Virus record (IMG/VR): IMGVR_UViG_2698536559_000001
Location: 1 to 5,754 of that record
DNA: 5,754 bases
Direction: 5' to 3' (one strand)
Origin: a virus
Lineage: Monodnaviria; Loebvirae; Hofneiviricota; Faserviricetes; Tubulavirales; Inoviridae
The position numbers were made by a program, and so were the translations under genes. The notes beneath the pieces were generated by a model. That model searched no databases and had not been told where the DNA came from. It saw only the letters and a program-made list of their open reading frames with translations. Of this stretch, positions 5,665-5,692 are shown piece after piece. Within the stretch, counting starts at the first letter, position 1, and each line of letters starts with the position of its first letter.

Positions 5665-5692
5665 AGTGCGCATAATGTATATTATGTTAAAT
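5665..5692 (+). other. dif-like 28-bp XerC/XerD recombination site (prophage-chromosome junction, attR-like)
   Basis: AGTGCGCATAA-TGTATA-TTATGTTAAAT matches the E. coli dif consensus GGTGCGCATAATGTATATTATGTTAAAT at 27 of 28 positions; the only mismatch is position 1 of the XerC arm. It lies at the end of the phage-like region. Confidence 0.8.

Follow-up and report, generated by a model that had tools for sequence, protein, structure and literature searches.

What is a nearly perfect dif site doing at the end of a set of filamentous phage genes? The question is raised by a stretch of 5,754 nucleotides (nt) recorded as an inovirus in IMG/VR (IMGVR_UViG_2698536559_000001; the whole stretch is called the window here), in which an earlier note had reported a match to Escherichia coli dif at 27 of 28 positions and had read it as the mark of integration by XerC and XerD, the recombinases of the host. 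The match was borne out. The 28-mer at 5665-5692 of the plus strand, AGTGCGCATAATGTATATTATGTTAAAT, differs from E. coli dif (GGTGCGCATAATGTATATTATGTTAAAT) only at position 1, the outermost base of the XerC arm; in E. coli dif, XerC and XerD arms of 11 base pairs (bp) each enclose a 6-bp centre (GGTGCGCATAA TGTATA TTATGTTAAAT). The site is unique in the window at up to three mismatches to dif, and none of 200 dinucleotide-preserving shuffles of the window gave such a match. The evidence set out below indicates that it is very probably the right attachment site (attR) of an inovirus prophage that was integrated into E. coli dif by the CTX-phage route, using host XerC/XerD.

The window corresponds to positions 3-5756 of contig LOGZ01000079.1 of the E. 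coli assembly GCA_001607225.1 and is identical to it save for two Ns in the contig. The 62 bases to the right of the 28-mer are identical (100%) to what follows dif on its right side in E. coli chromosomes. Beyond them lie a yneL-like helix-turn-helix (HTH) pseudogene and then the fimA-like/ydeQRS fimbrial operon, which continues to the right of the window on the same contig. The empty locus of FHI_NMBU_03 (L003) reads hipB-hipA, then T GGTGCGCATAA TGTATA TTATGTTAAAT TGAATTTGAG, followed by the HTH pseudogene and the fimA-like/ydeQRS operon, and its right flank is identical to that of the window. Since both the flank and the 28-mer match the dif locus, the 28-mer occupies the position of dif, with phage DNA in place of the hipA-side flank. 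The bases directly right of dif (window 5693-5700 and their equivalents in L006, L010 and L011) vary by E. coli lineage, reading TGAATTTG, CATGTCTG or TATACTTA/TACACTTA; L010 and L011 carry a Phd/Fic toxin-antitoxin pair and an inverted autotransporter right of dif instead of the fimbrial operon.

The site had been described as a hybrid, with a phage-derived XerC arm and a chromosomal XerD arm, and the sequences between tandem prophages established this. The closest prophage among complete genomes by nucleotide sequence, that of S21EC (~92% identity), is present as a tandem pair. Between its two copies lies an undivided phage site, C AGTGCGCATAA TGTGACACGCG TTATGTTGAAA (the leading C is the base that precedes the XerC arm), followed by an inverted site (reverse complement, AGTGCGCACAA TGGCG TTATGTGTAAA). 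At the right end of the pair, the identical C AGTGCGCATAA is fused to TGTATA TTATGTTAAAT. The undivided site, C AGTGCGCATAA with TGTGACACGCG, also was found between tandem copies in EC12, UTAK-3 (a triple array) and 700481. It follows from these arrays that the usual right junction consists of the phage XerC arm, C AGTGCGCATAA, joined to the host centre TGTATA and host XerD arm.

A partner site at the left end was seen in relatives. A protein identical to the secretin of the window is found at the dif locus of many E. coli assemblies, and lookup of this exact protein led to complete single prophages at 96 to 98% identity to the window. At the left ends of L006, L008, L009, L010, L011 and L014, the host sequence T GGTGCGCATAA is joined to the phage centre, TGTGACACGCG TTATGTTGAAA, and is followed by a loop and then by an inverted AGTGCGCACAA TGACG TTATGTGTAAA. 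The arm at the left junction therefore is the host XerC arm, including its host 5' neighbour T, fused to a phage centre; in L006 and L008 to L011 the prophage itself is one of those 96 to 98% identical to the window. Orientation is constant in all left-junction relatives, the phage coding strand being continuous with the top strand of dif. Taken together, the left and right junction sequences show that a single exchange, made where the XerC arm borders the centre, gave rise to both ends as its reciprocal products.

The 28-mer lies 410 nt past the stop codon of the secretin gene, at the end of an inovirus module on the same strand, in agreement with its reported position right after the phage genes; Pfam analysis supports the nature of the module. 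No integrase or recombinase gene was present in the gene lists of the complete relatives, which add to this module only an HTH repressor or small open reading frames (ORFs), a Rep protein and, in some, a single-stranded DNA (ssDNA)-binding protein. Like CTX-type elements, window and relatives thus have the genes of a filamentous phage but none for a recombinase. Together with the reciprocal junctions, this supports the proposal that the host XerCD system carried out the integration.

The phage integration site has the architecture of a forked hairpin. Its two inverted dif-like sequences, termed C and D, have a long top centre (11 nt) and a short one in the inverted partner (5 nt), and they are predicted to fold in the (+) strand, as in CTX-type elements. 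The DNA fold of C/D was -40.7 kcal/mol (z = -9.95); a second hairpin found in the window, A/B, gave -38 kcal/mol (z = -9.3). We compared 14 distinct hairpins of this one design, from Escherichia, Xenorhabdus, Arsenophonus and one metagenome-assembled genome. They were 94% paired, compared with 27 to 53% when the partners were slid, and compensatory changes on both sides were observed at 13 pairs, several of them within the XerC arm. In Xenorhabdus (L016, L019-L021) and Arsenophonus (L017/L022), the hairpins of the same design adjoin GGTTCGCATAA-type arms, and the core of the XerD arm is 100% conserved, which points to CTX-type Xer-integrated elements as a common feature of Morganellaceae.

In CTX phage, the folded (+)-strand attachment site, attP(+), consists of attP1, with a centre of 12 bp, and attP2, with a centre of 5 to 7 bp, and compatibility with a given dif is set by the bases adjoining the XerC arm (PMC4246890). 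The centre of C begins with TGT, as does the TGTATA of dif, and that of A begins with GGT; C thus shares with dif the bases that matter in CTX phage. The junctions also fall as in CTX-type integration, the right one in the window and the left one in the 96 to 98% identical prophages. By analogy, C and D would pair into the forked hairpin in the circular single-stranded (+) phage genome, with an unpaired centre (11 nt at the top, 5 nt at the bottom) flanked by a XerC arm and a XerD arm. Host XerC would then cut and swap the top strands of the hairpin and dif at the boundary of arm and centre, and replication would fix the product. The left product would hold the host XerC arm, the phage centre and the remainder of the hairpin, and the right product the phage XerC arm AGTGCGCATAA, the host centre TGTATA and the host XerD arm. 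In a circular or released phage genome, the rebuilt site would read ...CTGCTATAA-CAGTGCGCATAA-TGTGACACGCG..., and a phage-only IMG/VR contig, 95% identical to the window, carries the exact join predicted, namely, the right-end spacer followed by a C-type centre. For CTX phage, the exchange is by XerC only and is completed by replication, integration is irreversible, and phage is made from tandem copies (PMC4246890). We infer the same for the phage of the window: a single-stranded substrate, catalysis by XerC only, resolution by replication, irreversibility and rolling-circle production of phage from tandem copies.

It had been anticipated that further elements could stack at such a site, and double, triple and mixed arrays, with up to three copies, indeed were found at the locus (a tandem pair in S21EC, a double array in EC12 and a triple array in UTAK-3). 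Because attR differs from native dif only at its outermost base, the hybrid site is expected to stay functional in dimer resolution and to accept more phage copies; FtsK-dependent XerCD recombination at the 28-mer would be in keeping with its near-identity to dif and with the repeated integrations at such sites. The contigs of the source assembly, L012 and L013 all begin inside the prophage, as short-read assemblies do at tandem or multicopy prophages. Satellite-like elements of ~3.5 kilobases (kb) also are stacked at dif between forked hairpins (L015, ~10.7-17.6 kb; L005, ~0.5-4.2 kb). Structural genes are missing from them; what they encode is a Rep II/X protein, an ssDNA-binding protein and two hypothetical proteins, and they are reminiscent of RS1 in Vibrio cholerae. 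In UTAK-3 (L014, 14633-15866), each unit has a duplicated partial copy (~464 nt) of the noncoding region that follows gene IV, together with an extra A-type site; this copy resembles a stacked miniphage-like remnant.

Several observations weigh against integration by the CTX-phage route or limit what can be concluded about it. The source contig starts 2 nt before the window, inside the prophage, so that reciprocity is known only from the 96 to 98% identical relatives. The array of JNE112863 (L005, 12242-12269) ends in a perfect GGTGCGCATAA dif (beginning GGTGCG) despite its integrated phages; evidently, the phage arm of JNE112863 carries G, and an A at position 1 is usual but not obligatory and is no universal mark of occupancy. 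At two related loci, the centre of the right junction is GGTATA or GATATA, neither of which would be expected from simple XerC exchange. Junction sequences alone cannot separate a single-stranded hairpin from a double-stranded substrate, and the support for the element comes from sequence rather than experiment.

The hairpin A/B, which was absent from the earlier note, lies 43 nt upstream of attR. Relatives have a version of the intervening spacer ~45 nt longer than that of the window. Alignment placed a mosaic breakpoint at ~5476-5483, upstream of which the window is of the S21EC/JNE112863 type and downstream of which it is EC12-like; from ~5483 to the junction it follows the right end of EC12 almost exactly, save for a 45-nt deletion, and the phage body of EC12 is unrelated. 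Since A/B and the spacer recur in each unit of the EC12 double array and the UTAK-3 triple array, and on the viral contig, the hairpin today travels as part of the phage genome. A/B is rare: among 5,426 complete E. coli genomes, 13 have it. No A-type left junction was found in these 5,426 genomes, where matches of ~82% proved to be ordinary C/D-type left junctions, and all left junctions found carry the C-type centre. This disuse likely reflects its centres: GGT, GAT or GAC in place of TGT should mismatch E. coli dif by the CTX compatibility rule. At position 7 of the XerC arm, the A/B pair is T-A in the window type and C-G elsewhere, and this compensatory change argues that the hairpin is maintained. 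The idea that a phage from another species attaches through A/B was rejected, the A-type core being absent from all species-representative genomes; a search with the broader hairpin pattern retrieved only Xenorhabdus, Arsenophonus and one metagenome-assembled genome, each with its own centres.

A tentative and rather doubtful idea is that the phage carries a tandem double attP module, in which C/D serves integration and A/B, with its GGT, GAT or GAC centres, is kept by compensatory changes as a spare attachment site for dif centres that start with G, as a miniature hitchhiking Xer-integrated element or as a decoy or regulator of XerCD. Centres of this kind, GGTATA and GATATA, do exist at the right junctions of two related genomes. 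If true, the idea would extend the CTX paradigm of one hairpin. In our judgment it is unlikely that the 139 nt from the centre of A/B through the second XerC arm (5537-5675) are foreign to the phage genome, left over from another Xer-integrated element that arrived after the phage and has since lost its body, and to which the arm at attR would belong. Two CTX-type insertions in succession would leave this geometry, with a direct repeat (D1, 5525-5558 and 5664-5697) at a spacing of 139 nt; S21EC-type relatives are without the stretch 5537-5675, UTAK-3 has stacked partial copies of the noncoding end, and the window is EC12-like from 5483 on while its phage body is S21EC-like. Such a remnant sits poorly with the finding that each copy in the EC12 and UTAK-3 arrays has both hairpin and spacer, as does the phage-only viral contig, and the swapped pairing that it requires would mismatch, whereas the observed covariation is T-A for A-B and C-G for C-D.

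The variant right junctions involve the same stretch. In L010 (11532-11559), the junction is AGTGCGTATAA GGTATA TTATGTTAAAT, that is, an A-type arm and the start of an A-type centre, and in strain 700481 (L015, 17588-17615) it is AGTGCGTATAA GATATA TTATGTTAAAT. Direct XerC exchange via A/B was rejected as their source, as it would yield TGTATA. On the simpler reading, they seem to have lost the ~139 nt that separate the A site from its direct repeat at attR; slippage within TATAT may have caused the loss, or else Xer exchange on the XerD side. Such an exchange, if it took place between two double-stranded sites, would fit them as well, and XerC exchange on double-stranded DNA would leave the same junction sequences as exchange with a hairpin. 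It nonetheless appears very unlikely that the phage used a double-stranded site of the VGJ or TLC type, from which the prophage could excise by Xer recombination between its ends. The 11-bp centre of the top site has been described as unsuitable for Xer recombination in duplex DNA (PMC4246890), and the CUS-1 and Ypf phages are classed as CTX type. The top site always has its inverted partner, moreover, and the pairing is kept by compensatory changes with a fold at z of about -10; a duplex site would need neither.

That the 28-mer is simply the native dif of the strain with a point polymorphism, the phage being adjacent for some other reason, is hardly credible and already largely refuted: dif variation within species is concentrated at positions 1-4 and 27-28 (PMC2731167), which makes a G-to-A change at position 1 unremarkable, but an artificial empty locus with the A variant had no 100% match in the 5,426 genomes (best, 99.1%, with one mismatch), the single empty locus read base by base has G and not A at position 1, the A and the preceding C are the exact phage sequence between tandem copies, and the complete relatives, in which no integrase is present, have had their host-type arm (T GGTGCG...) moved to the left end.

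Integration through a forked hairpin, by the CTX-phage route, thus remains the reading that we prefer. The mechanism already is documented for CTX phage and proposed for CUS-1 and Ypf, and the finding adds a lineage rather than a new principle. It does confirm that a Xer-integrated prophage junction can be recognised correctly from sequence alone. Diverse mosaic filamentous phages and satellite-like elements populate the E. coli dif locus, one and the same secretin being accompanied by at least three replication modules. Taken with the variant dif centres of two related junctions, the second hairpin offers a natural test bed for the control of Xer phage integration by the centre in E. coli.

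Table 1. Features of the window, from the phage genes to the chromosomal flank
Feature	Position	Strand	Basis
Gene VIII-like major coat protein, 83 amino acids (aa)	455..706	+	Pfam Phage_Coat_B, E = 5.8e-4, 20.3 bits (below the cut-off of 23.5 bits); module position
Gene III-like adsorption protein, start codon uncertain	1017..2624	+	ORF list; tandem repeats; module position
Gene VI-like minor coat protein, 95 aa	2642..2929	+	Pfam DUF2523, 4.9e-9
Gene I-like assembly ATPase, Zot domain, 352 aa	2941..3999	+	Pfam Zot, 2.7e-23
Gene IV-like secretin, 419 aa	3996..5255	+	Pfam Secretin, 1.8e-25, and Secretin_N
Noncoding region after gene IV	5256..5523	+	Mosaic breakpoint inside (alignment)
Second intact forked hairpin, A/B	5524..5621	+	Arm scan; inverted repeats I2/I3; fold; compensatory pairs
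A/B top site	5526-5558	+	AGTGCGTATAA GGTATATGCCG TTATGTTGAAT
A/B inverted bottom site	5619-5593	-	AGTGCGTACAA GAGCG TTATGTGTAAA
43-nt spacer, right terminus of phage genome	5622..5664	+	Alignment; spacing in L006-L013
attR, hybrid dif	5665..5692	+	27/28 to dif; same junction in 12 related or unrelated dif prophages
Phage-derived XerC arm, AGTGCGCATAA	5665-5675	+	Origin from inter-copy junctions and phage-only viral contig
Host centre, TGTATA	5676-5681	+	Part of attR
Host XerD arm, TTATGTTAAAT	5682-5692	+	Part of attR
E. coli chromosome right of dif	5693..5754	.	100% identical to empty and occupied E. coli loci

The genes of the module lie on one strand (Table 1), and the stop codon of the Zot gene overlaps the start of the secretin gene. 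The exact Zot protein of the window was present on only 4 contigs. Pfam analysis gave no match for the gene III-like ORF. Within it, ~13 copies of a 12-nt repeat (window 2110-2269) encode a Gly-Thr linker; the two Ns of the source contig fall in these repeats, and the length called for the gene III-like protein ranges from 469 to 598 aa among relatives. The region 5256-5525 was considered as a packaging or origin hairpin and rejected, as it folds no better than its shuffles (z = -0.5). A 68-aa ORF on the minus strand (5548-5754), which runs over hairpin B, the spacer, attR and the chromosomal flank, has been annotated publicly (L023, L008); because it spans the junction of phage and chromosome, it is almost certainly spurious.

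A search of a phage database with the whole window returned no nucleotide match, and no named phage could be assigned. The UP-phi901 group (IKe-like phages of Enterobacterales) resembles the phage of the window in that its members are filamentous prophages at E. coli dif, often in tandem, with repeat variation in gene III (PMC7307601). UP-phi phages have ~70% protein identity to IKe and I2-2 (PMC7307601). A tblastn search with the window Zot protein gave no match to IKe, I2-2 or M13, the best being 39% to metagenomic inoviruses, and by this comparison of Zot the phage of the window is not of the IKe-like UP-phi (Lineavirus) kind.

The earlier note had named both CTXphi and VGJphi as kin in their mode of integration, and only the first half of this comparison stands, on account of the forked hairpin. 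VGJ-type and TLC-type elements likewise use host XerCD and dif and have no integrase. However, they rely on a single double-stranded site of 28 to 29 bp and are reversible, whereas the phage of the window has an 11-nt centre and an obligatory inverted partner. A single double-stranded attP of ~29 bp with a normal centre, the hallmark of the VGJ type, was not what we found: the centres are 11 or 5 nt and the sites are inverted pairs.

Among enterobacterial filamentous prophages at dif, CUS-1 (E. coli O18:K1:H7) and Ypf/CUS-2 (Yersinia pestis), which share a 7.1-kb core at 99% nucleotide identity between the two, stand beside the phage of the window. CUS-1 and Ypf are classed as CTX type in a review (PMC4246890), and for Ypf phage, an intact dif restored at the 3' end, an inverted pair of XerC/XerD sites and arrays of 2 to 4 copies have been reported (PMC4266046). 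The phage of the window has in common with them the dif rebuilt at the 3' end, the inverted pair and the tandem arrays (PMC4266046, PMC4246890) and, going by the published description, Zot and a secretin of ~415 aa adjoining attR (PMC10354491); its own secretin has 419 aa, against a published 414 aa for Ypf. No link to CUS-1 emerged from the names of protein clusters. The closest complete relatives of the window differ in having a Phage_GPA-type replication module, and the second intact hairpin has no description in the CUS-1/Ypf literature reviewed.

The likeness to CTX phage of V. cholerae extends over the whole attachment site and its products. Both have two inverted dif-like sites that fold in the (+) strand, with centres of 11 and 5 nt here and 12 and 5 to 7 nt in CTX phage, and both share with dif the TGT adjoining the XerC arm. 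In both, the host arm meets the phage centre at the left junction and the phage arm meets the host centre at the right, and both form tandem arrays and have hybrid, mosaic genomes. They differ in host and dif sequence and in the loop between the XerD arms, which is ~36 nt here and 90 bp in CTX phage. Unlike CTX phage, the phage of the window encodes its own secretin, has no toxin genes in the window and carries an extra hairpin upstream.
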